A stretch of DNA of 64,000 bases from a virus (lineage: Duplodnaviria > Caudoviricetes), in IMG/VR virus record IMGVR_UViG_3300010327_000802, positions 9,201 through 73,200 of that record; one strand, written 5' to 3'. The notes under the pieces were generated by a model, which was given only the letters and a program-made list of their open reading frames with translations, was not told the DNA's origin and did no database searches. The position numbers and the translations under genes were made by a program. Positions 1 to 64,000 of the stretch are shown here, piece by piece. Each line of letters starts with the position of its first letter. Positions within the stretch are counted from its first letter, which is position 1.

Positions 1-215
1 TTTCCACTACACCCCTCTACAGTGTAATCAATTGAGTACTGCCAGTCATATGGTGTATATGGCAAATTTGTAGCCAATTCATCAATATACGAACCACTAA
101 AACTGCCAGTACTTATTCCCATTGGTGAACCACCAACCCACAAAGTAGTGGGGCTTGAGGGAACCTTAAATTCCCCGAATTTTATTGCCCACTTTAGATC
201 TGGTCTTATAGCCAT
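1..215 (-). CDS. Partial CDS running off the window (MAIRPDLKWAIKFGEF...); possibly a capsid decoration or other capsid-associated protein
   Basis: ATG at 215 with AAGGAGGT SD; I translated it manually and it is open to base 1; lies downstream of the candidate scaffold gene; function is positional inference. Confidence 0.6.
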   Translation of the reverse strand, partial: MAIRPDLKWAIKFGEFKVPSSPTTLWVGGSPMGISTGSFSGSYIDELATNLPYTPYDWQYSIDYTVEGCSG

Positions 216-283
216 TTTATACCTCCTTGATTTACTTCAATGAACGGAGCATACTTTACTCCATTCTGTTTTCTTATAGCCAT
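206..283 (-). CDS. Possible 25-aa ORF (MAIRKQNGVKYAPFIEVNQGGIKWL)
   Basis: AAAGGAGGT SD plus ATG at 283; its start duplicates the start of the next gene. Confidence 0.3.
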   Translation of the reverse strand: MAIRKQNGVKYAPFIEVNQGGIKWL

Positions 284-293
284 TTTACCTCCT

Positions 294-1499
294 TTATACG
301 ATTTCTCTTAAATCGTGCACAACTCCATCATCATCTACAAGCAGCTGAGCATCTTCTGGCATATTTTCAAGAATTTCAGAAAGAGCTTTTAAATTTTTCT
401 CATCGTAAGTAGCATATACTTTTCTATATTGATTTTTTAACTCTACTGGTATTATTTCTTTTGCTATTAGTTGGTCTACTAAATTTTCTACCAATATAGA
501 AGAAGTTTTCTTTTTGTCCTCTTTAAAAGTTTCTCTCCCAAAGACAGTCTCCCCTTTAGAATCTAGCCCTTTTGGAAGATCCTCTCTACCGAAAATCCTC
601 TCATCTTTCTTTCCGCCGACATCTTCTCTTCCTATTGTTGGTTTCTCCTTTGACATAAACCTCTTAAGGGGTCTTAAGGTCCTTGTTGGAATATCATAGG
701 TGTAATATTCAGGGGGTTCTTCCGTAGATTTTACTTCAATAGAAGCTTCCTTAGGATCAATAACTAAACTAGCAGTAACAGGTAAACTTGTAACTTTATC
801 ATTAAAAGTAAATGTAAGTGAAACCCTTCCTGTAGCTTTATCAATTGAAATAGTTTCAACAGATATGTTTTCAAAAGGAGCACCAACTAAATCAGAAACA
901 GACTTTAATACAGCATTTACAGAAATCTCTCCAGATTCTTGGGGGACAGTTTCTGTTGGTTGCTGCACCTCTTGTGGGGTCTCAGATACTACTTCATTAA
1001 CGTTCATAGTATCCTGGGTATTGCCCACCCCTCCTGGATTAATTTCTATATTTTCAACTCTGTCTGGTCGTTCCATACCTTCCTCCGCAGTCTTTGCCAA
1101 AAATTCTGTGGCTTTTTCTTTAATAGAAGACACCTTTTTTAGTAAGGCATCAAGCTTTTTTTCTATATTTAACTTCTCATCTTTAGAGAAGTCTTTCTCA
1201 AGTTTCGTATTTAATTTTCTATTCATTACATTTTTTCCTCCTTTATTAAGAGACCAATCCTCGTCATATTTAACATTACCTCCTCTCCTAACTTTTTGAA
1301 GATACCTCTTAGTACAACTACATCCTTCTTTTGATTTAACATAAGGTTGTGAATATCTCTTAAGTGGATTATATCGAGGAGAGGATTTATGTCTTTTGTA
1401 AGTTTCTTCAAAATCATCAGCTAAACTTAGTATCTCTTTCTTAGCATCAATAACCTTTTCGACACTTTTTAAAAATTTACTTAAATAATCCTTTGCCAT
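294..1499 (-). CDS. Head-module protein, candidate capsid scaffold (track ORF 294..1544; likely start MAKDYL at 1499)
   Basis: AGGAGG SD before ATG 1499; charged coiled-coil and low-complexity segments; last large gene before the presumed capsid genes. Confidence 0.5.
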   Translation of the reverse strand: MAKDYLSKFLKSVEKVIDAKKEILSLADDFEETYKRHKSSPRYNPLKRYSQPYVKSKEGCSCTKRYLQKVRRGGNVKYDEDWSLNKGGKNVMNRKLNTKLEKDFSKDEKLNIEKKLDALLKKVSSIKEKATEFLAKTAEEGMERPDRVENIEINPGGVGNTQDTMNVNEVVSETPQEVQQPTETVPQESGEISVNAVLKSVSDLVGAPFENISVETISIDKATGRVSLTFTFNDKVTSLPVTASLVIDPKEASIEVKSTEEPPEYYTYDIPTRTLRPLKRFMSKEKPTIGREDVGGKKDERIFGREDLPKGLDSKGETVFGRETFKEDKKKTSSILVENLVDQLIAKEIIPVELKNQYRKVYATYDEKNLKALSEILENMPEDAQLLVDDDGVVHDLREIV

Positions 1500-1509
1500 A
1501 AAATCCTCC

Positions 1510-3987
1510 TTACTGGGAATAGTTCCCAGAAATAAACCCCTCACAAAAGCTATCTAAGTCCGTTATTCCACTATTTTGTAGAATCTCTTTGCATCTTTCC
1601 TTTGCTGAGACTTTATTTTCTTTTGGGATATCTTTCATCCCTTCATTAAGCCTCTTTTTTACTTCCTCAGGTATAGGCGTTTGAGCATTTGTATCTGTAG
1701 TGGGAGGAGTAGGGGGTTGATTAGGATTTGTTACTGTTGAGGGAGTAGGCTGTGTTTCATCTTGGGCTTTCTTTCTTATAGAAGCTCTAGGGGCTTCTCT
1801 AACATTAAAGGAGACATTTTTCCCTCCAGAAGTAGGGCTAAAAGTAACTTGTTTAGATACTGGAGTGGATGGTACTTGTTTTCTTTTCTGTTCTTTACTT
1901 AGTATATTGGTCAATTCCCTTTTGTACCCCTTTTCTACTATTTCCTCAGGAAGAGGAAGATTTTTTAAGTAACTACTTCTCCATCCAGGCCCTTCGACCC
2001 TATCCCTCAAATTAATACAGAATTTTACAGGGTTGATTACTCTGCCGAACATTTTTAAAGTACATCCTCTGATTGGATCTTCAGGGTCGTCTTTCGATAA
2101 AGTGCTCCAGTATTTCTTCACACTTTCCTCAGTCCATCCCTTAGGTAGTCTTTCAAAAATAGAATATTTAACACTACCTTTCTTAAGTGGTCTTTTAACC
2201 AATGCTCTTGTAACCCTCTCTATACCCCCAACTTTATGTAAATAGCGCTTAAGACTAGCCAGCTTCTTTTCAATCTTACGGAGTGCTTCTATGTAAACCT
2301 CTTTTCTATTTTTCCCTATTTCAATTAAAGATTCAGGGGGAAGTGTAGTTTCAGTATAAGATGCATATCTCAGTCCTCTGGAAAGATCTAATATATCCTT
2401 ATAAGTATACCAGTAGCTAGAGAAAAATACCTCTCCCTTTTTGTCATATGTTATTGGGCTTAAAACAAATGCTCCTACTTTTTCAAAATTAAGATTTAAT
2501 GGTTTATGTATATCTAAAGAAGCAAATAGAACTTCTGCTGGCAAATAGATAAAATCCATTCCAGCAAAAGATAAACTAGACATTAGACTTTTTACATATT
2601 CGTCATCAGGTACAAATCTTACATAATCAGAAATAAACGTATCAATATAGTTATCTTCATCAATTGAAGAATGCTTTATTTTAGACAAATTATCCATATA
2701 CTTTTCTAAATCACTACCAAACTCATACAGTAGCTTTCCAATATTTCTATGCTTATAACTACTAACTGCCGATTCTTTAATAAGATAACCAAGATTCTTA
2801 AAACTGGAGGCAACTTTATAGTTTAATTCCGAAGAGGATTTAATATTCTTAATTTCATTAATTATTTCTTCACCCTTATCTGATTTTTTAGCTAAAGTTT
2901 CTATGTCTTTAACTGCTTTATCTATGCTATCTAAAGAAGAAATAGAATCAAAATAACCCTTTTGAGAAATCTTATCTCCAAGACCCTTCACAGATTTCTT
3001 AAAATATTCATAGGTAGGCTTTATTACTTTATAATAATCAATCGTATTGTTTGCTAATTTTGCAAAAACATAAGAAGCTAAATAGATAGAATCTGGGGTG
3101 TAATAAAATCTAAATGGAAATTCATTATAAGAAGAAATTTTCTTTATATTTGGTTTCTTAAAGACATGTATCGAGCTTTCTTTAGGTAAAGAGCCCTCTG
3201 GAGGAGTAGATTGATCTGTGGTTTGTTTCTGCGTTTGTATAGTAGAAGCGGGTTGATTTGAAGTTTGCTTTTGTTCCCGCACATCAGTCTTACTAGGAGT
3301 ACAAGTTCTACTAGTACAACCTTCAGAAGTAGCAAAATAAATCTCTCTCCCACCAAATGCAGAAGCCGCTGAACCACTAGGTAGTTTGGTTACTAAAAAG
3401 TTCATTCCACGCTCAAATGGAATAAGCATATTATCCCCAAAAGGAGTACCTTCCGGGAAAAAATAAGCAAGATACTCTAAAATTCCATCTGGTTTATCCT
3501 TTGTTTTCCTATATGATTCTATTAAAAAACCACCATGTGAAAAAATCCACTTATATCTAGTTTTCTTGCCTTCCTCTACAATACTTTTTCTATTGCCTGA
3601 GTATAAATGCCAAAAGTCTTTAACTTTTCCCTTTACTTCCTCTTTTTCTGTAATAAGTAACATTTCACCTGGATTTCCCTTTACAAGGATAAATGGAGAT
3701 TCTACAGGAGTGGGTAATCCGCACTCCGCCTCAAGGGATTCAGCCTCAACTCTCGCAGTGGCATTAAAGGGAGGAAACCCCACCCCACTAGGCATAATGT
3801 ATTTACAAACGTGAGATAAGCTAGGGTACGAAAGTCTATAAAAATCGTTTTCATTTTCAACTTTATTAGCAGCAAACTTCACATTTTCTATCTTAGATAG
3901 AAAATTATCTAGAGAATATATTAGCCTTTCAGCCTTATCTTTCTCTCTTCTAATTGAATTTATTAAATTGCCTATGGCTACTCTCAT
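1510..3987 (-). CDS. Large uncharacterised head-module protein (825 aa) with LPKGWT...WR domain and P/T/Q linkers
   Basis: Long ORF with AGGAGG SD; modular, with KxAS motifs and two C-x14/15-C helical hairpins. Confidence 0.75.
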   Translation of the reverse strand: MRVAIGNLINSIRREKDKAERLIYSLDNFLSKIENVKFAANKVENENDFYRLSYPSLSHVCKYIMPSGVGFPPFNATARVEAESLEAECGLPTPVESPFILVKGNPGEMLLITEKEEVKGKVKDFWHLYSGNRKSIVEEGKKTRYKWIFSHGGFLIESYRKTKDKPDGILEYLAYFFPEGTPFGDNMLIPFERGMNFLVTKLPSGSAASAFGGREIYFATSEGCTSRTCTPSKTDVREQKQTSNQPASTIQTQKQTTDQSTPPEGSLPKESSIHVFKKPNIKKISSYNEFPFRFYYTPDSIYLASYVFAKLANNTIDYYKVIKPTYEYFKKSVKGLGDKISQKGYFDSISSLDSIDKAVKDIETLAKKSDKGEEIINEIKNIKSSSELNYKVASSFKNLGYLIKESAVSSYKHRNIGKLLYEFGSDLEKYMDNLSKIKHSSIDEDNYIDTFISDYVRFVPDDEYVKSLMSSLSFAGMDFIYLPAEVLFASLDIHKPLNLNFEKVGAFVLSPITYDKKGEVFFSSYWYTYKDILDLSRGLRYASYTETTLPPESLIEIGKNRKEVYIEALRKIEKKLASLKRYLHKVGGIERVTRALVKRPLKKGSVKYSIFERLPKGWTEESVKKYWSTLSKDDPEDPIRGCTLKMFGRVINPVKFCINLRDRVEGPGWRSSYLKNLPLPEEIVEKGYKRELTNILSKEQKRKQVPSTPVSKQVTFSPTSGGKNVSFNVREAPRASIRKKAQDETQPTPSTVTNPNQPPTPPTTDTNAQTPIPEEVKKRLNEGMKDIPKENKVSAKERCKEILQNSGITDLDSFCEGFISGNYSQ

Positions 3988-4468
3988 TTTTCCTCCTTAT
4001 ATATCTAAACTTCTCATCTTCATCAACAAAATATTCTGTGTCTTCATCTTCAATTTCATCCTCATCTTTATATTTCTTGAAAAATAAATTTTTCTCTTCA
4101 TCTATATCGGCAAAAATACCACCCTCTAAAACTTCTTCTGAAAGATCATACACAAACGTTTCAATACCCATAATTATTTCATGTAATATATCTTCTTCTC
4201 CATCGGGTAGGGTTTTATCCTCAACAGATAATTCTTCTAAAATATCAACAAGTAAATTATAACAATAAAGTAAGTTAGAAACTCTGTCAGCTAGAGACCA
4301 AGTGTCCCACTCATAAAACAATATAGTAAAATGAGCTACTAAAGCATTAAACTTATCTATGTCCTTATCAACAGGCTTTCTTTGTTCAACATTTAATTTT
4401 TCCTTGAGAAGATCTATCTTTTTTCCCACTTCTCTTATAATTTCTTTATCAATATTTTTTTCTAACAT
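3950..4468 (-). CDS. Acidic hypothetical protein
   Basis: ORF with AGGAGG SD, in operon. Confidence 0.7.
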   Translation of the reverse strand: MLEKNIDKEIIREVGKKIDLLKEKLNVEQRKPVDKDIDKFNALVAHFTILFYEWDTWSLADRVSNLLYCYNLLVDILEELSVEDKTLPDGEEDILHEIIMGIETFVYDLSEEVLEGGIFADIDEEKNLFFKKYKDEDEIEDEDTEYFVDEDEKFRYIRRKNESSHRQFNKFN

Positions 4469-4847
4469 GTAAAATATCCTCCTTGTCTGAAACTATCTTT
4501 TTTAATTCAACCTCAAAAAGTTCTCCGCTTGAACCATATTCTAATTGTGGAAACCAAGCTACCTTTTCAACAGTATCTTTATATGCAGATTTAATGGGTC
4601 CCTCCATTGGGACTAAGGGTAAATAGTTCTTTTTATTATCATTAAAGTTTTTCTTATAATCTTCATAATATCTTTGATAATAATTTGACACCTTAATATA
4701 GCTTTTTATACAAGGGTCATTCTCAATACACTCATTTATTTTTTTAGAAAGCTCTTCATTTTTAGAAGCTGTTTTTACAAAACTACTCCATTTCATTTTG
4801 GAAAAGTATTTCTTCCAAACATAAGATAGTAAATCAAAGTTTGTCAT
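4449..4847 (-). CDS. Hypothetical head-module protein
   Basis: AGGAGG SD; contains KTAS. Confidence 0.7.
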   Translation of the reverse strand: MTNFDLLSYVWKKYFSKMKWSSFVKTASKNEELSKKINECIENDPCIKSYIKVSNYYQRYYEDYKKNFNDNKKNYLPLVPMEGPIKSAYKDTVEKVAWFPQLEYGSSGELFEVELKKIVSDKEDILHVRKKY

Positions 4848-4894
4848 ATCTCCTCCTATATATAATTAGACTAATAATTTCTTTTAACATAACC

Positions 4895-6031
4895 TCATAT
4901 AGTTTCATCTTTTATAGTCTTCATACAGATATATTTCTTAACAGAGTCTTCTATGGTATACCCTAAATTACTTAATTTATAAATATAATTAAATGAAGAA
5001 GTCCTTATTATATTAAGTTTCTTTAAAGCCTCTATAAGTTCTTCATCAGGGACAGCTGTAAGTAAATTTTCTCTATCAGATACTATAATAGTAGGTTCAG
5101 AAAGTTGCTGTTCTTTCCACTTTAACTCTTTCAGTCTGTTTTTAACAACAGATGAAAGGTCCTCTGGAAACAAAATATTAGTTTCTCTCGAAGATTCTTC
5201 CTCTTGGGGCTTCCCTATTTCGATTCGATCATATGGTGTTTTTTCATATTCTTGAGATTGAGGGTTTCTAAACTTATCACCAAGTGGTTCTACAGCTGAT
5301 TTATTAAAAGAAGCAGTTAATATCTCAAGCATCTTAGCATTTCTATCTGCACCTCTTCCACCAGCCAACCCACGAAGATTGAGTGGACGAATAATAGAGT
5401 CTTCGAAAAAGTCTACTCCATAACAAATTTCAAAAGAAAGCTTTTCTTCCCCAGAAGCAGTTTTAATCTTTTTCATTTTATACACAGCTATGTGTTCACA
5501 GTACTCACTTTCCACAGAAGCTTTCTTCCCACAAATACTACAAATAGAATATTGGACAATAGATCCCATTGAAGTATCAGTAACTTCTCCATTAACAATA
5601 TAATTAACAAGATTTTTATCATACTTTGCAGCAAGTTTCTTATCAATTGCCAATAGATTTTGAATATAATGTCCTGAAAGAGGATCATTTGGATATTGCT
5701 GAGGAACATACCTGCTGTCAAGTACAACTCCAATAATCATATCTGGGCGGTGATCAATGGTAACTCTTTTTCCTATAAAAGTGGAATAGGATTTTTTCAA
5801 CTCTTCATCTGGGAATCCGTCTCCATTATCATTTGGACCAAAAAATTCATAAGCAGAAACAGAATGATTTCTAAGATAAAGATATCTGGCGGGATCAAGC
5901 GTTATTCTCTTAAAACTTGGAATTGCAGAAGCAAACTTTTTAAGTCCAGGTTGATCGGAAAATAAATCTTTCATTTCTCCAACTTCTGATACCTTACTCA
6001 AGCCTAACCAGTACCCAGTTTTTACTAGCAT
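4895..6031 (-). CDS. Putative prohead (capsid maturation) protease, HK97/assemblin-like serine protease with CxxC...CxH insert
   Basis: Pattern NDNGDGF..EL..SYSTF.G.....DH, then TSMG (candidate catalytic His and Ser), CSICG...CEHI, FFEDS and GAD; downstream of the portal. Confidence 0.65.
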   Translation of the reverse strand: MLVKTGYWLGLSKVSEVGEMKDLFSDQPGLKKFASAIPSFKRITLDPARYLYLRNHSVSAYEFFGPNDNGDGFPDEELKKSYSTFIGKRVTIDHRPDMIIGVVLDSRYVPQQYPNDPLSGHYIQNLLAIDKKLAAKYDKNLVNYIVNGEVTDTSMGSIVQYSICSICGKKASVESEYCEHIAVYKMKKIKTASGEEKLSFEICYGVDFFEDSIIRPLNLRGLAGGRGADRNAKMLEILTASFNKSAVEPLGDKFRNPQSQEYEKTPYDRIEIGKPQEEESSRETNILFPEDLSSVVKNRLKELKWKEQQLSEPTIIVSDRENLLTAVPDEELIEALKKLNIIRTSSFNYIYKLSNLGYTIEDSVKKYICMKTIKDETI

Positions 6032-6033
6032 TT

Positions 6034-7224
6034 TTATCCTCCTTTAGTTATCTTTGAAAGTTTTTGGCGTATAAGCTTTGATAGAGAATTGTAACTTTTT
6101 TCCGAAGACTGTTTGACTTCTCCAGCTGACGGGGTAGAAGGGGCAGAAGGGGCAGAAGTAGGAGGTGAAGGAGCATTTGTCTCAGACGTAGGAGTAACCT
6201 CAGTTTGAGTACTTGTTGGTTCTTGTGATGGAGTAAAATGTGTATGTTTATCTGTAGAAAAGCTCTGGTTGCCCATCTCTAAAGTTTCTCCTTCACTTCC
6301 ACTTGGTTCTTCCCATTCTTCTTTTAATTCCTCATCTGTTTCTTGAATAATTCCTGAGGGGAGATATATATAGGTATATTTATTAGGAGTGTTCTTTACA
6401 AATATCATTACAGAGGAAAAAGATGGAAAGTCTAATTTTAATAATTTTCTTTTTGTTTCAATAGAAATTGGAGAAAGAACAACATCCCCTCTACTATTCT
6501 TTGCCTTAATTTCTACCCTAAATAGAATAGTTGAGAAATTAGAAGATATAAACGTATCTTCAATATATATATTATCTTCTAATTCTTCTATAATATTTTT
6601 AGGCAAGTCTCCTGGAATACTAACAGTCCCTACAATAGTGGAAGTAACTTTTGCTTCCTTTAAATATTCTATTGCTTTACTAAACTTTTTTGAAAAATCT
6701 CGTAATATAGTACTTATACCCAATTCTCTTATCTCTGGGGAAACAGCTGCAATCTCATCTGCAATAATATTAAATATAGCCCTCTTAGTTGCTTTGTCCT
6801 TCGTCATTAAAAATTGAGTAAGAAAATTATTAATTAGAGCAACCCTAATTATATCATCTTTATATCTTTCGGCTTTCTTCAGAATCTCTTTACTTTTTTC
6901 AAATTTATGAGATAAAGAAGATATATCTTCAATAATCGTATCTTCAAACAGATTTTCTTTCAACATTTCTTTTGCAGTCTTAACTAAATTTTCAGCAGTG
7001 GAATGAAACTTATCTGATAGAATAGTCCTTACTATTTCTACAAAAGAAGAATCTGGGATAAAATCAGAAGAAAGTGAATTTATAGAAGCATTTTTTCCTT
7101 TAAATTCCTCAGAAACAGCAAAAACTAGAAAATCTTTTTCAATTCCTAAAAATAAAGGAGCTAATGATAGAGACGAAAAATGTTTAGCTGCAAAAGGATA
7201 ATCTCGGCAATGTATTATTCTCAT
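6034..7224 (-). CDS. Hypothetical head-module protein with P/S/T-rich tail
   Basis: Long ORF in operon. Confidence 0.75.
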   Translation of the reverse strand: MRIIHCRDYPFAAKHFSSLSLAPLFLGIEKDFLVFAVSEEFKGKNASINSLSSDFIPDSSFVEIVRTILSDKFHSTAENLVKTAKEMLKENLFEDTIIEDISSLSHKFEKSKEILKKAERYKDDIIRVALINNFLTQFLMTKDKATKRAIFNIIADEIAAVSPEIRELGISTILRDFSKKFSKAIEYLKEAKVTSTIVGTVSIPGDLPKNIIEELEDNIYIEDTFISSNFSTILFRVEIKAKNSRGDVVLSPISIETKRKLLKLDFPSFSSVMIFVKNTPNKYTYIYLPSGIIQETDEELKEEWEEPSGSEGETLEMGNQSFSTDKHTHFTPSQEPTSTQTEVTPTSETNAPSPPTSAPSAPSTPSAGEVKQSSEKSYNSLSKLIRQKLSKITKGG

Positions 7225-51111: not shown

Positions 51112-51213
51112 TTTACTATACGATTATACTTTACCAACTTTACTATACGATTATACTTTACCAACTTTACTATACGATTATACTTTACCAACTTTACTAT
51201 ACGATTATACTTT
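51112..51213. repeat. 27-bp direct tandem repeat (TTTACTATACGATTATACTTTACCAAC) x about 3.8, iteron-like
   Basis: Exact copies at 51112, 51139 and 51166, partial at 51193. Confidence 0.95.
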
Positions 51214-58161: not shown

Positions 58162-58710
58162 ATGGAGGATAAACCCGAAGTAATCCAAGAAAACAAAATA
58201 AATATTCAGGTACTACCAATTATCATTATCATATGGAAAAAAGGAAGCACCGAGTCACTGGTTTTACGTTCGAAATGCGAGGAAATTCCAATAGAAAACC
58301 TTACGGATGAGGAAAAGGAAGAACTCTTTGCAACCGCTTTTAATATGATAGCTACCCTTTCATCGACTAATGGAGCTTTAGCGATTGCGGCTAATCAGCT
58401 CGGAATCACCAAAAGAATGTTTGTAATCAATCTTGGATTTCCAAGGGTCTTTGTCAATCCGAAGATAATTGAAAAGAAGGATGAGGTTCTATTGACTGAG
58501 ATGTGTCTGTCTATACCAGATACTCCTGTAAAGGTGAGAAGGTATAGCAAAGTTAAGATGGAAGCTTATGAGATATTTCCATTCCTCAAGTATATTACCC
58601 CCAAACAAGTGTATGAACTTGAAGGGGTTTATGCTCAAGCGGTCCAGCATGAAATAGACCATCTAAATGGTAAACTGATTATTGATTATATGAAGACGGG
58701 GAGAAAATAG
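58162..58710 (+). CDS. def: Peptide deformylase with variant motifs (track start 58150)
   Basis: GALAIAANQLG, EMCLS, QHEIDHLNG. Confidence 0.88.
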   Translation: MEDKPEVIQENKINIQVLPIIIIIWKKGSTESLVLRSKCEEIPIENLTDEEKEELFATAFNMIATLSSTNGALAIAANQLGITKRMFVINLGFPRVFVNPKIIEKKDEVLLTEMCLSIPDTPVKVRRYSKVKMEAYEIFPFLKYITPKQVYELEGVYAQAVQHEIDHLNGKLIIDYMKTGRK

Positions 58711-58712
58711 AA

Positions 58713-59153
58713 ATGGAACGAGGAAATGCTAGTGAGAAAATCAAAGCATTAATGGATTGGCAAAGAGAGTTCCATAGAAAACGAGATGAAATTGTCAAAA
58801 AGTATGACCTGAAGTCTCCAGAGGAAATCATTTCTTTCTTTAGGTATTCGAATTTATCTAAAAAAGAACCCGATTTCTGTCCATTATATAAAACTGGAGA
58901 AGTTTGTCATAAAGGTCTTTCAAAAGGAGAACTTGTTTGTTACTACTGTGCTTGTCCTTACTATGATGCAAACTATTTTGACCCAGAACGTGGGCTGATT
59001 GGCAGGTGTTTGATAAACAGTTCACGAGGCAAGTATAATAGACATGGATATTGGGATTGTACAGATTGTACCTTACCTCACAGACCATTATCTGCATTAA
59101 AAATGTTAAAGACTGAAAAAGAGAGTGAAAGTAAGAAGGAACACAAAGGATAG
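58713..59153 (+). CDS. Cysteine-rich small-domain (zinc-binding) protein
   Basis: FCPLY...CH...CYYCACPYY...C...WDCTDC.LPH. Confidence 0.75.
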   Translation: MERGNASEKIKALMDWQREFHRKRDEIVKKYDLKSPEEIISFFRYSNLSKKEPDFCPLYKTGEVCHKGLSKGELVCYYCACPYYDANYFDPERGLIGRCLINSSRGKYNRHGYWDCTDCTLPHRPLSALKMLKTEKESESKKEHKG

Positions 59154-61537
59154 TGGAGGAACAAACGGGCAAAGATATATCTAATGAAAGGAGATTTATT
59201 GAGGTTGCCTTCCCTATAAAAGAAGTTAGTAAAGAATCTTCAAAAGAAAGAAACATAAGGGATGGGCATATTTCAACCTTACACTTATGGTGGTCAAGAA
59301 AACCGCTTAGTTCATCAAGAGCAACAACTTATGCTGCCTTAATTCCTTATCCGTCAACAGAAAATGAAGTAAAAGAAAAGACAGAATTCATTATTGAGCT
59401 TTCTAAATGGAAAAACTCTTTGATGGAGGATGTTATTAGAAAGGCAAGAGAAGACATTCTAAGAGCAAATGGTGGAAAGCCTCTAAAGGTTTTAGACCCA
59501 TTTGCTGGTGGCGGTTCAATTCCATTGGAATGCCTAAGACTTGGTTTAGAGCCCCATGCTGGAGAGTATAACCCCGTTGCGGCCCTCATCCTAAAATGCA
59601 CCCTTGAGTACCCCCAAAAGTATGGAGGGCAAAACAAGGTTAAAAGAAATGAAGGCTTGTTTAATATTGAGAAAGCAGAAAGTCCATTGATTGCGGATAT
59701 AAGGAAATGGGGAGAATGGGTTTTAGAGCAGGCGAGAAAAGAGATAGGAAGGTTTTATCCAGAAGATGAGGACGGCTCAATTCCATTAGGTTATTATTGG
59801 ATGCGAACTATACCTTGTCAAAATCCTTCTTGCAAGGCTGAAATTCCGTTAACAGCTAATTGGTGGCTTGTTAGAAAGAAGGATGAGAAAGTTTTTCTCT
59901 ATCCTTTTGTTTACAACGGAAAGGTTGAGTTTGCTATAGTTCAAAGGAATGGAGATGAATGGCAGGTTGTGGAGAGTTCTGTTCCTGGGTTTATTCCAAA
60001 AGTACCTTCCAATTTTGATCCAGACAATGGGACGGTTTCTAGAGCCTTTGCTGTTTGCCCTGTTTGTAAAAGTACTATTGAGGATAATCAAGTAAGAAAA
60101 CTCTTCCAAGAGGAAAAGGCTGGTCAGAGAATGGTTGTAGTTATTTTAAGTAAATCAGGGAAAAGGGTTTATAGATTGGCTACTGAGAAGGATGTTGATC
60201 TTTACAAAAATGCAGAGGAGTATTTAGAGGTAAAAAGAAAAAAACTTTTGGGGGAATGGGGGTTTGATCCTGTTCCAGATGAGGACTTCTCCTCAAGTGT
60301 GATATTCAGCACTCGGCTTTATAAGCTTACAATGTTTGGTGACCTTTTCAACGCTCGTCAAAAGCTGGCTTTAATTGTCTTTACCGAAAAAGTTAGATTG
60401 GCGTATAAAAAAATGATAGAAGAAGGATATGATAAGGAATATGCTAAAGTAGTTCTAACTTATCTTGGGTTTGGAGTAAGCAGACTAGCTGAATATACGA
60501 GTAATCTGTGTTTTCTTGATAGTACATTGGAAAAGGTTTCTCATGTTTTTAGCAGGCAATCACTTCATATGGTTTGGGATTACTCAGAAGTGAATCCATT
60601 GAGTAAAGCTGTTGGGTCTTGGACAAGTATGGTTTTAAGGAGAATCTTACTTTCTCTTTCTCACCTTACTCAAATTCCACCTATAGGAAATGTAACGCCC
60701 AATGTTTATAGATCTTCAGCTACCGAGCTTCCATATCCAGATAATTACTTTGATGCTGTCTTCACTGACCCTCCTTATTATGATAATGTGCCCTATTCTC
60801 ACCTTTCAGATTTCTTCTATGTCTGGTTAAAACGTAGCATTGGGGACCTTTATCCAGAGCTCTTTTCTACCCCTTTAACACCAAAATCAGAGGAGATAGT
60901 TGCTTATTCCAAACGGGGTGGGGGTTCAAAGGCTTTAAAACTTATGAAAGATGACGGGCGAATGTGCTTGAATATTCCCTTGGACAAAAACAAGGGTGGT
61001 CAGCAGAGTGTTTATGCTGATATAATTACAATTGCCAAGAAGGTGGGGTGGAAGTACCATTCAACAATCGTATGGAATGAGGGCAATATCTCAAGAAGGA
61101 CAGCATGGGGTTCATGGCTTTCCCCCTCTGCACCCTATGTGATTGCACCGGTTGAAATGATTGCAGTTTTATATAAAAAAAGATGGAAGAAACAAGGTAT
61201 GGGAGAGTCTGATATAACAAAGGAAGAGTTTATTGAGTGGACTAATGGTATTTGGACTTTCCCTGGCGAGAGTAAGAAAAGAGTTAATCATCCTGCTCCT
61301 TTCCCTCTTGAGTTACCTAAAAGGTGTATAAAGTTGTTTACCTATGTTGGGGATACAGTTTTAGATCCATTCCTTGGGAGTGGAACTACCTTAGTTGCTT
61401 GTGCACTTTTGAATAGAAGAGGAATAGGAGTTGAAATCGACAAAAATTATTGTGAAATTGCAAAGAACAGGTTAATTAAAGAAGGCAAAGTTCTAGAAGA
61501 TAATCTTTTTCAATTACAAAGCAAACTGGAAAGGTGA
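59153..61537 (+). CDS. Chimeric amino-methyltransferase: DUF1156-type N-terminal part fused to a beta-class N4/N6 MTase C-terminal half
   Basis: LHLWWSRKPL, DPFAGGGSIP and TDPPYYD, then KDDGRMCLNIP...HPAPFP..LP.R.I....GD.VLDPFLGSGTT. Confidence 0.85.
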   Translation: MEEQTGKDISNERRFIEVAFPIKEVSKESSKERNIRDGHISTLHLWWSRKPLSSSRATTYAALIPYPSTENEVKEKTEFIIELSKWKNSLMEDVIRKAREDILRANGGKPLKVLDPFAGGGSIPLECLRLGLEPHAGEYNPVAALILKCTLEYPQKYGGQNKVKRNEGLFNIEKAESPLIADIRKWGEWVLEQARKEIGRFYPEDEDGSIPLGYYWMRTIPCQNPSCKAEIPLTANWWLVRKKDEKVFLYPFVYNGKVEFAIVQRNGDEWQVVESSVPGFIPKVPSNFDPDNGTVSRAFAVCPVCKSTIEDNQVRKLFQEEKAGQRMVVVILSKSGKRVYRLATEKDVDLYKNAEEYLEVKRKKLLGEWGFDPVPDEDFSSSVIFSTRLYKLTMFGDLFNARQKLALIVFTEKVRLAYKKMIEEGYDKEYAKVVLTYLGFGVSRLAEYTSNLCFLDSTLEKVSHVFSRQSLHMVWDYSEVNPLSKAVGSWTSMVLRRILLSLSHLTQIPPIGNVTPNVYRSSATELPYPDNYFDAVFTDPPYYDNVPYSHLSDFFYVWLKRSIGDLYPELFSTPLTPKSEEIVAYSKRGGGSKALKLMKDDGRMCLNIPLDKNKGGQQSVYADIITIAKKVGWKYHSTIVWNEGNISRRTAWGSWLSPSAPYVIAPVEMIAVLYKKRWKKQGMGESDITKEEFIEWTNGIWTFPGESKKRVNHPAPFPLELPKRCIKLFTYVGDTVLDPFLGSGTTLVACALLNRRGIGVEIDKNYCEIAKNRLIKEGKVLEDNLFQLQSKLER

Positions 61538-61540
61538 ATT

Positions 61541-62389
61541 ATGGAAAGAACGATTTTAGACGTTCAAGAAAATCTTGTCTTGGTAGATAATGAACAAAAA
61601 TCCTCATATTCTCTAGATGGGGTATTGAACAAAGTAATTCTTGGTGACTGTTTTAAAGTAATGAAGAAGTTACCTTCTGAAATCTTTGATTTAGTCTTTG
61701 TAGACCCTCCATATTTCCTTCAACTTCCATCTAAAAAACTTGTAAGGTGGTCTGGTAGTGTAGTTGATGCTGTTGATGATGAATGGGATACATTTAAAGA
61801 TTTTGATGATTATGACAACTTCACAAGGAATTATCTGACGGAAATCAAAAGGTTAATGAAACCTAACGCTACAATTTGGGTTATTGGAACTTACCACAAT
61901 ATTCATAGAGTTGGAAAGATAATGATGGATTTGGGATTCTGGATTTTGAATGATATTATATGGTTTAAGTCTAATCCAATGCCCAATTTCTTAGGAGTAA
62001 GGTTTACAAATGCTACGGAGACTTTGATTTGGGCTGTAAAGGATAAAAAAGTTAAAAATTATACGTTTAATAAAGAAATTGCAAAGAGTTTTGCTAACGG
62101 TAAATTACCTGTAAACGTATGGCAAATTCCAATCTGTTCAGGTAAGGAAAGATTAAGGAATGAAAAAGGAGAAAAGGTTCATTCTACGCAGAAACCAGAG
62201 GAGTTGTTAAGAAGAGTAATATTGACTTCATCCAAAGAGGATGATATAGTTTTTGACCCTATGGCTGGAACTGGGACAACTGGTTTTGTGGCAAAGCAAT
62301 TAAATCGTAATTTTGTAATGATTGAAATAAACAAGAGTTATGTTGATGCAACCGTGGAAAGATTTAGAAGAAGGTTTAACAATGAGTAG
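61541..62389 (+). CDS. Beta-class N6-adenine DNA methyltransferase of the M.HinfI/CcrM type (GANTC specificity inferred)
   Basis: DPPYFLQL, IWVIGTYHNI, NPMPNF.G.RFTNA.ET, HSTQKP, DPMAGTGTT; no cognate REase adjacent. Confidence 0.88.
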   Translation: MERTILDVQENLVLVDNEQKSSYSLDGVLNKVILGDCFKVMKKLPSEIFDLVFVDPPYFLQLPSKKLVRWSGSVVDAVDDEWDTFKDFDDYDNFTRNYLTEIKRLMKPNATIWVIGTYHNIHRVGKIMMDLGFWILNDIIWFKSNPMPNFLGVRFTNATETLIWAVKDKKVKNYTFNKEIAKSFANGKLPVNVWQIPICSGKERLRNEKGEKVHSTQKPEELLRRVILTSSKEDDIVFDPMAGTGTTGFVAKQLNRNFVMIEINKSYVDATVERFRRRFNNE

Positions 62390-62625: not shown

Positions 62626-62747
62626 GAATAATAATGAATACAATTCTAAGTCTAGAGGATAAAATAAAAAATAGTACACCAAATACAGAAGAAAGAAGAA
62701 TATATGTCGCTCAACAGGATATAATATCGGATTTAACTAAAACCTAG
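62622..62747 (+). CDS. Short 41-aa ORF, possibly truncated by the IS insertion
   Basis: ATGA overlap with the zinc-ribbon gene stop; ends at the IS left end. Confidence 0.3.
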   Translation: MRIIMNTILSLEDKIKNSTPNTEERRIYVAQQDIISDLTKT

Positions 62748-62779
62748 CAAGAATTCTCCCACTTCTAAGCGAAGCGAAA

Positions 62780-62977
62780 GTGGGAGATGAATTGCGCAGT
62801 ATTGAAAATGCTTATAAAAGCGCAAGTAGTAGATTGATAAAAAAAGAATTTCCTGAAATAAAGAAATATTTGTGGAAAGAATACTTTTGGTCAAAAAGTT
62901 TCTGTTTACTTACAACGGGTGGAGCACCTATTGAAATAATAAAGAAATATATAGAAAGTCAAGGAAAGAAGGCTTAA
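62780..62977 (+). pseudogene. tnpA: 5'-deleted IS200-type Y1 transposase (C-terminal third only)
   Basis: KSASSRLIKKEFP..LWK..FWSKSF....GGAP...IKKYIESQ; HUH motif absent. Confidence 0.85.
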
Positions 62978-62979
62978 AT

Positions 62980-64000
62980 ATGCTTAAAGCATATAAATAT
63001 AGAATGTATCCTACAAAAGAACAACAAGAATATTTTGCAAAAGTGTTTGGCTGCGCAAGGTTTATATACAATAAAATGTTAGTAGATAAAATAGAATACT
63101 ATAAACAAACTGGAAAAATGCTAAAGACTACACCTGCAAAATATAAAAAAGAATATCCTTTCCTAAAAGAAGTAGATAGTTTAGCTCTTGCTAATGTTCA
63201 GCTTAATTTAGAAAGAGCATATAACAACTTTTTTAGGGATAATAGCATAGGGTTTCCTAAATTCAAAAAGAAAAAAGGATATCAATCCTATACAACAAAT
63301 AATCAAAATGGGACAGTTGATATAGATAATGGATACTTAAAAGTTCCGAAGTTAAAAACAAAGATAAAAATAAAACAACATAGACAATTTGAAGGAATTA
63401 TTAAGTCAGTAACAATATCTAAAACACCAACAGGTAAGTATTATGCTTCAGTATTAGTAGAAACAGAGAAAAAGGAGTTACCAAAAGTAGATAAAAAAAT
63501 AGGAATAGATTTAGGATTAAAAGAATTTGCTATTCTTTCAGATGGAACAAAAGTAGAAAACCCAAAGTGGCTAAGAAAAACTGAAAAGAGGATAAAAAAG
63601 ATTCAAAGGGATTTGTCAAGGAAACAAAGAGGTAGTAAAAATTATGAAAAAACAAGAATAAAACTTGCTAAATTACATGAAAAAATAGCTAACCAAAGAA
63701 AAGATTTTCTTCATCAATTGTCCTCTAAAATTATACACGAAAACCAAGTGATAGTTTTAGAGGATTTGAAAGTGAAGAATATGCAACAAAATCATTATTT
63801 AGCAAAAGCAATAAGTGAAGTATCATGGCATGAATTTAGAAGGATGTTAGAGTACAAAGCAAATTGGTATGGCAGAAAAATAATAATAGCTCCATCGAAT
63901 TATGCAAGCAGTCAATTATGTAGTAATTGTGGGTATAAGAACCAAGAAGTAAAAGATTTAGCATTAAGAGAATGGATATGTCCTCAATGTGGAACAAAAC
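62980..64000 (+). CDS. tnpB: TnpB RNA-guided nuclease (partial, runs off the window; missing from the ORF track)
   Basis: Manually translated open frame: [37 protein letters not shown]. Confidence 0.95.

Follow-up and report, generated by a model that had tools for sequence, protein, structure and literature searches.

We analyzed a 64,000-nt stretch of viral DNA (hereafter, the window) corresponding to bases 9201-73200 of the 73.2-kb IMG/VR virus record IMGVR_UViG_3300010327_000802. Within the window, one open reading frame (ORF) encodes a hybrid DNA methyltransferase, in which residues 1-593 of an HmaB-type DUF1156 methyltransferase are fused in frame to residues 67-269 of a beta-class methyltransferase of the TSPPY family. 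A sequence-only reading of this DNA had described an in-frame chimera with one catalytic DPPY and two FxGxG cofactor modules, joined somewhere within 60913-60935. That description holds: translation of the ORF found the three motifs at the places given for them, DNA alignment put the junction at 60928-60930, and the part joined to the DUF1156 enzyme is the C-terminal three quarters of a beta-class enzyme. The features of the ORF are as follows (TRD, target recognition domain; pLDDT, predicted local distance difference test).

59153-61537, plus strand: hybrid methyltransferase ORF (protein P0001), a single open frame of 794 aa with a GTG start
59153-60930, plus strand: HmaB/DUF1156-derived segment, aa 1-593 (86% aa identity to aa 1-596 of P0003), with the DUF1156 N-terminal motif, motifs I-II, an insert of ~350 aa (CxxxxC, CxxC) and motifs III-IV
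59207-59377, plus strand: Pfam DUF1156 signature (PF06634), aa 19-75 (E = 5.9e-21, 74.8 bits, cut-off 24)
59495-59515, plus strand: N-terminal motif I, DPFAGGG, aa 115-121 (ORF translation; pLDDT >90)
59630-60682, plus strand: large insert between motif II and motif III, aa ~160-510, with C222/C227 and C302/C305
60767-60778, plus strand: sole motif IV, DPPY, aa 539-542, of HmaB origin
60928-60930, plus strand: deletion junction, an AAA microhomology common to both parental flanks (DNA alignment)
60931-61537, plus strand: beta-class-derived segment, aa 594-794 (91.8% nt identity to positions 3470-4138 of the sister phage contig L001), with the end of the connecting helix, LMKDDG/motif V-VIII, the TRD and motifs X-I-II
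61364-61384, plus strand: C-terminal motif I, DPFLGSG, aa 738-744

The PADLOC HmaB profiles (PDLC00660/00661) aligned aa 8-594 of the hybrid to positions 3-630 of about 970 (973) with E = 6.5e-98; a full-length match fails, as the ~330-aa last third of HmaB (motifs V-VIII and the C-terminal domain) has no counterpart. Against NF042963, the NCBIfam model of full-length DUF1156 anti-phage proteins, the hybrid scored 111.7 bits versus a cut-off of 1000. Pfam N6_N4_Mtase (PF01555) matched aa 534-771 across its positions 2-220/221 (135.4 bits, cut-off 26.7), and a PADLOC type II methylase profile of 260 positions matched aa 528-775. The DPPY region falls within both the HmaB and the beta-class profile matches, and the motif IV end of the PF01555 match is of HmaB origin. 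The hybrid therefore has (D/S)PPY, then the TRD, then FxGxG within one PF01555 domain; its homology to the beta family is not continuous, and close relatives match only from about aa 594-597 on, with 80-88% identity.

Relatives were sought in 5.8 billion protein clusters and, by a complete HMMER search, in 1.84 billion representatives. When the entire protein was the query, only the window's own cluster covered 99% of its length; the other strong matches were DUF1156 proteins of 900-925 aa (~75% of the query) or N-terminal pieces of 510-520 aa (~64%). Taken half by half, as the sequence-only reading had recommended, the N-terminal part has its relatives among DUF1156 proteins and the C-terminal part among beta-class enzymes. 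The full-length DUF1156 enzyme closest to the hybrid, P0003, aligns in BLASTP over aa 1-596 only, with 86% identity, and beta-class relatives begin to match at about aa 592-597; no protein in the HMMER pass over the 1.84 billion representatives had an alignment crossing aa 592-597. For query aa 520-794, the best short match was P0122, a 269-aa beta-class enzyme encoded on a 4,140-bp contig (the P0003 contig is also 4,140 bp), which from its aa 67 on is the closest protein to the beta-derived part. This part is up to 88% identical to family members of 260-290 aa, and among the best 120 of 450 beta-part proteins of 436-1390 aa, DUF1156 occurred only in the window's own cluster. In a scan of viral contigs, the sole other relative was a distant, unfused and normal 872-aa gene on contig L012. 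The hybrid is thus not a conserved family: it is known from this phage clone alone, and these searches found no full-length homologue outside the clone, whereas widespread ones would have refuted the sequence-only reading.

Several other proteins and contigs came up in these searches. The top HMMER match, P0242 (1749 aa), was considered as a second double-module protein and rejected, as it consists of two complete DUF1156 enzymes arranged head-to-tail (44% and 42% identical to the query), a different architecture. On contig L012, which is classed as viral, a 1054-aa ORF lies directly 5' of the 872-aa DUF1156 gene (positions 805-6634), and the two resemble an Hma-type pair. Many proteins of ~470-485 aa (P0401-P0498) fuse a LexA DNA-binding domain and an S24 peptidase to the same beta-class methylase family; those with organism names belong to Patescibacteria/CPR and carry the annotation LexA in these genomes.

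The parental genes are found unfused on the sister phage contig L001, which carries, in order, a 146-aa gene (75-515), a 920-aa DUF1156 enzyme (P0003; 515-3277) and a 269-aa beta-class enzyme (P0122; 3270-4079). The two methyltransferase genes are separate and adjacent, overlap by 8 nt and lie one frame apart. Synteny between the contigs is anchored by the first of these genes, which has a counterpart directly upstream of the hybrid:

58713-59153, plus strand: upstream 146-aa Cys-rich gene, corresponding to L001 75-515

Positions 58639-60930 of the window align to L001 1-2292 with 86.4% nt identity, and positions 60928-61605 align to L001 3470-4138 with 91.8% nt identity. The window thus differs from L001 by a single 1,180-bp deletion, and AAA at 60928-60930 is the sole sequence that both flanks have in common at the joint. 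Because 1,180 is 1 mod 3 and the two L001 genes are one frame apart, the deletion brings them in frame. Lost with it were aa 594-920 of the HmaB-type enzyme (327 residues, comprising motifs V-VIII and the C-terminal domain) and aa 1-66 of the beta-class enzyme, including its TSPPY motif IV. The alignment shows that the ancestor carried a ~920-codon HmaB-type gene followed directly by a 269-codon beta-class gene, an arrangement that the sister contig keeps; a 1,180-bp deletion at the 3-nt AAA microhomology then fused the HmaB-type gene, at its codon 593, with codon 67 of the beta-class gene. The sequence-only reading had likened the protein to the intermediate of duplication/fusion models of methyltransferase circular permutation. 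An origin by duplication and fusion of one gene is contradicted by a single deletion between two unrelated neighboring genes: the HmaB-type and beta-class parents have only motif-level similarity, and their two cofactor modules are ~50% identical over 18 residues. The intact methylase gene just downstream of the hybrid was also considered as the donor of the beta part and was ruled out, since the two proteins are 35% identical over 62 aa only.

The same junction is present in five assemblies: the IMG/VR record, L002 (Logan), L003 and L010 (ENA), and L011 (JGI). The four contigs are ≥99.95% identical to the window over 6.6-13.6 kb, and together the five assemblies carry two haplotypes in the start region of the gene, with or without a nearby insertion sequence (IS) element. 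L002 and L003 read on past window position 62736, where the window has an IS200/IS605 element, whereas L010 and L011 stop exactly there. An assembler could in principle have joined two similar methylase genes into a chimeric contig, as the source is a metagenome and the parental genes share short stretches of motif-level similarity. However, five contigs that differ in pipeline and sample (IMG/VR, JGI, Logan, ENA megahit and ENA SPAdes) and represent both haplotypes show one and the same junction, the joint shares 3 nt only, and the deleted part has no second copy in the 73.2-kb record. We therefore rule out misassembly, which the sequence-only reading had named as the first way in which it could fail, and regard an artefact of this kind as extremely improbable. 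The search for a relocated C-terminal HmaB piece in the 73.2-kb record was likewise negative, which is weak evidence given that the record is only ~37% complete. The junction is real and older than the IS polymorphism, and the fusion itself is a recent one, limited to a single near-clonal phage population.

The sequence-only reading had placed the join at a structurally equivalent point of the two parents. Both breakpoints do fall into the segment that separates motif IV from the LKxxG motif, but the residues are not exact equivalents. After motif IV, the parents align as D-IPY...L-F---WL(K/E)(R/K) (BLASTP, MAFFT); the break in the beta parent, which follows WLEK, has its homologous position near aa 561 of the HmaB parent (after WLKR), whereas the HmaB break is at aa 593. 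The connecting helix was thus rebuilt rather than cleanly swapped: the hybrid has 32 extra helix residues relative to the beta family and ~16 fewer before LKPNG relative to the HmaB parent. The residue before PPY also differs, being S in ≥90% of 115 beta-family sequences and D in the hybrid. SPPY is the commoner form in N4-cytosine enzymes and DPPY in N6-adenine enzymes; given this preference, the catalytic loop and the TRD of the hybrid may be mismatched.

Judged from motif order, the HmaB-derived part would supply strand 1 (motif I), strand 2 (motif II), the 350-aa insert, strand 3 and strand 4 (DPPY), whereas the beta-derived part would supply strands 5-7, the TRD and a second X-I-II unit. 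Small beta-class enzymes start with a motif-III-like strand and end right after motif II, so the duplicated element is the X-I-II cofactor module of ~65 aa. Only one of the two X-I-II copies would be able to pair with strand 4.

AlphaFold, run on the full-length protein with an 86-row alignment, gave a model with a mean pLDDT of 78.6. Most residues of aa 20-575 are above 90, and the large insert (aa ~160-510) forms a confident beta-rich domain, making it a candidate for the DNA-recognition module of the HmaB parent. Values fall below 50 at the junction (aa 582-598) and range from 27 to 73 in the rest of the beta part. In VIA-align, solved class-I methyltransferases align to model residues about 40..543, a comparison informative for the N-terminal Rossmann half only; it indicates a native-like seating of the N-terminal motif I module against the DPPY strand. 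Sequence search found no solved structure of any DUF1156 enzyme; the nearest solved beta-class structure is Thermus thermophilus TTHA0409 (PDB 2ZIE), which P0122 matches at E = 1e-31. The structure prediction that the sequence-only reading had called for was thus informative for the N-terminal motif I, which packs confidently on the DPPY strand, and of low confidence at the junction and in the beta part. As to the proposal that DPPY could pair with either motif I, the model seats only the N-terminal module. Based on this model, the native N-terminal module would sit beside DPPY and is most likely its partner, with the C-terminal module left unseated.

Taken as a whole, we read the locus as a real hybrid gene in a large tailed phage, born by deletion, recent, limited to a single clone, and with its native N-terminal cofactor module most likely seated, and we put the probability of this reading at about 0.8. 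Regarding function, we lean toward a product that is inactive or crippled and is tolerated because an intact methylase is encoded just downstream. It is conceivable, if somewhat doubtful, that the hybrid still methylates DNA. In that event, the lone DPPY might pair with one motif I module or alternately with both, possibly with new or dual specificity, and the enzyme would perhaps be a natural topological intermediate between motif-I-first and motif-IV-first enzymes. The N-terminal module is the more likely partner of DPPY in an active hybrid. A specific version of such an enzyme, in which the HmaB cofactor/DPPY half is completed by beta-class strands V-VIII and the TRD and the spare C-terminal motif I can take over, would be unlikely.

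Activity would be favored by an in-frame junction that is roughly congruent between motifs IV and V, by the presence of every sheet element once or more, and by the fact that natural hmaB genes can be split into I-II and III-IV-onward modules, which makes the cofactor module separable. Arguing against activity are the rebuilt connecting helix with its low pLDDT, the replacement of the near-invariant S of the beta TSPPY by D, and a clustering of variants on the start signals. In addition, all fused copies belong to one clonal population (≥99.95% identity) with no diverged copy, so that selection after the fusion is neither measurable nor demonstrable, and the fusion is not datable by selection tests.

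Comparison of the five assemblies located the variants at the start of the gene:

59137-59212, plus strand: cluster of strain variants

The first is A/T at 59137, within a Shine-Dalgarno-like AAGGA. The second, C/T at 59166, affects codon 5: the window and L011 have ACG, and L002, L003, L010 and L001 have ATG. In L010, an extra T at 59209 causes a frameshift at codon 19-20; this T may be an error of assembly. C/T at 59212 in L003 is synonymous. All fused strains have GTG as codon 1, where L001 has ATG. The start signals are therefore weakened by GTG at codon 1, by ACG at codon 5 in the window and by the +T frameshift in one assembly. With alignment-edge mismatches in a repeat region near 51162 left out of the count, four variant sites fall within 76 bp and none in the remaining ~11.4 kb, a distribution far from random. 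This suggests that expression of the hybrid may be under selection, being either turned down or shifted in its start with compensation.

Several observations weigh against the reading that we prefer. Relative to L001, the ratio of nonsynonymous to synonymous substitution rates (dN/dS) is low, at 0.185 in the HmaB part and 0.068 in the beta part, compared with 0.10 in the upstream gene (dS is 0.31 and 0.37 in the HmaB and beta parts, respectively). Relative-rate counts with outgroups showed no excess of amino-acid changes on the window branch (N-terminal part, 24-36 versus 22-26; beta part, 1-4 versus 4-8), which is in favor of an active hybrid. These sequence comparisons would fit either a very recent deletion or a hybrid that is still constrained, and they do not separate the two. 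The ORF is intact in each of the five assemblies, and the linked changes at 59137 and 59166, instead of marking decay, could be a start-codon shift with compensation. The deletion is in frame and has both of its ends in one inter-motif segment, a combination expected for ~0.3% of random deletions between two genes (a rough count, 8% × 10% × 1/3), which is a hint of selection for a working product. Finally, a separate fold of aa 510-794, made with 115 beta-class rows that each have 60-83% identity to the query, reached a mean pLDDT of 54; the weakness of the beta part in the models probably reflects the low diversity of the alignment, not misfolding, and this limits the structural evidence.

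Cellular HmaB proteins encoded in Hma operons have 63-72% identity to the N-terminal 593 aa of the hybrid; for example, P0004 and P0005 (71% identity to the N-terminal part) are encoded in operons of the type SNF2 helicase-DUF1156-DUF499. Hma (helicase-methylase-ATPase) is an anti-phage system in which the helicase-nuclease HmaA defends against T4, and the role of the methylase HmaB in it is unproven (Liu et al. 2024, PMC11232893). Like HmaB, the hybrid has the DUF1156 signature, DPFAGGG, a Zn-ribbon-bearing insert and DPPY. Unlike HmaB, it is borne by a phage, has no adjacent HmaA or HmaC, takes its C-terminus from another methylase class and lacks the final ~330 aa of the family profile. No SNF2 or DUF499 partner was found beside the hybrid gene, and a PADLOC scan of four neighbors gave no Hma match. 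The phage lineage appears to carry a copy of a host-type defense methylase, which would most simply serve self-protection.

The hybrid might alternatively be kept as a decoy, a truncated HmaB look-alike that binds the host's Hma partners or DNA sites and blunts host Hma. The identity of its first 593 aa to HmaB proteins of Hma operons, the confident AlphaFold fold of the HmaB-derived part and the loss of the C-terminal HmaB domain are compatible with this idea, whereas the sister phage retains a full-length enzyme, and the role of HmaB in Hma is itself unsettled. We consider a decoy, which is deduced rather than observed, very improbable.

In contig L008 (5001-8597; also in L007 and L009), a cellular hmaB related to the N-terminal part of the hybrid is split into a 517-aa piece with motifs I-II and the insert and a 416-aa piece with DPPY; the pieces are parted by a 50-aa ORF and an MNT-HEPN toxin-antitoxin pair in an otherwise normal Hma operon. 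Since hmaB is thus naturally cut just before motif III into two genes, the cofactor module with its insert (I-II-insert) is a separable unit. The split hmaB keeps both halves of one enzyme as two genes, whereas the second half of the hybrid is partly foreign.

Other genes in the window, including those for a portal, a terminase, a ribonucleotide reductase and helicases, belong to a phage record that CheckV estimates to be 37% complete. The neighbors of the hybrid are the Cys-rich gene, a peptide deformylase, ThyX, a Cas4-like nuclease and a second methylase, the last of which has motif-level similarity only to the hybrid:

61541-62389, plus strand: intact 282-aa beta-class methyltransferase directly 3' of the hybrid (PF01555 2-220/221, 202 bits)

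The IS200/IS605-type element at window 62737-64000, which is missing from L002 and L003 of the same phage, contains a 65-aa ORF matching only the C-terminal half of a Y1 transposase, plus a TnpB gene running off the record; L010, L011 and the IMG/VR record each come to an end at this element or within it. In L003, positions 1991-2049 hold ~58 bp more than window 51155-51165, an intergenic repeat region 5' of the DNA polymerase gene, and the excess is likely a difference in repeat copy number in a putative origin.

Compared with known enzymes, the hybrid shares with beta-class PF01555 enzymes the order motif IV, TRD, motif I; it differs from them in that the first 66 beta residues, with TSPPY, are replaced by 593 HmaB residues with DPPY, including the 32 extra helix residues. 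A model of permutation by duplication has been put forward for DNA methyltransferases (Jeltsch 1999, as cited in PMC3320104, where Bujnicki 2002, PMC102321, is also listed). The partly redundant catalytic domain that this model predicts is present in the hybrid, with motif I at both ends and one motif IV, and the layout I-II-III-IV-V...VIII-TRD-X-I-II is that of a permutation intermediate, with one catalytic half between two copies of the cofactor module. Intermediates in the Jeltsch model, however, arise by tandem duplication of one gene, whereas the hybrid arose by one deletion between two non-orthologous neighbors; it resembles a permutation intermediate in layout only. Laboratory intermediates of M.HaeIII have reportedly been described by Peisajovich et al. 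in 2006.

Models of how motif order changed in DNA methyltransferases assume that partly redundant fusions can exist and work, and natural examples of known origin are scarce. Here, both parents, the breakpoint and the product are known, and the formation of the fusion is reconstructed to the base. If the hybrid is dead, the locus amounts to no more than a recent deletion among clustered phage methylase genes. If the hybrid is active, it would be a natural and datable one-step bridge between two methyltransferase topologies, with the unfused parents still present in a sister phage. The locus also illustrates that phages carry and reshape the methylase of the host Hma defense.

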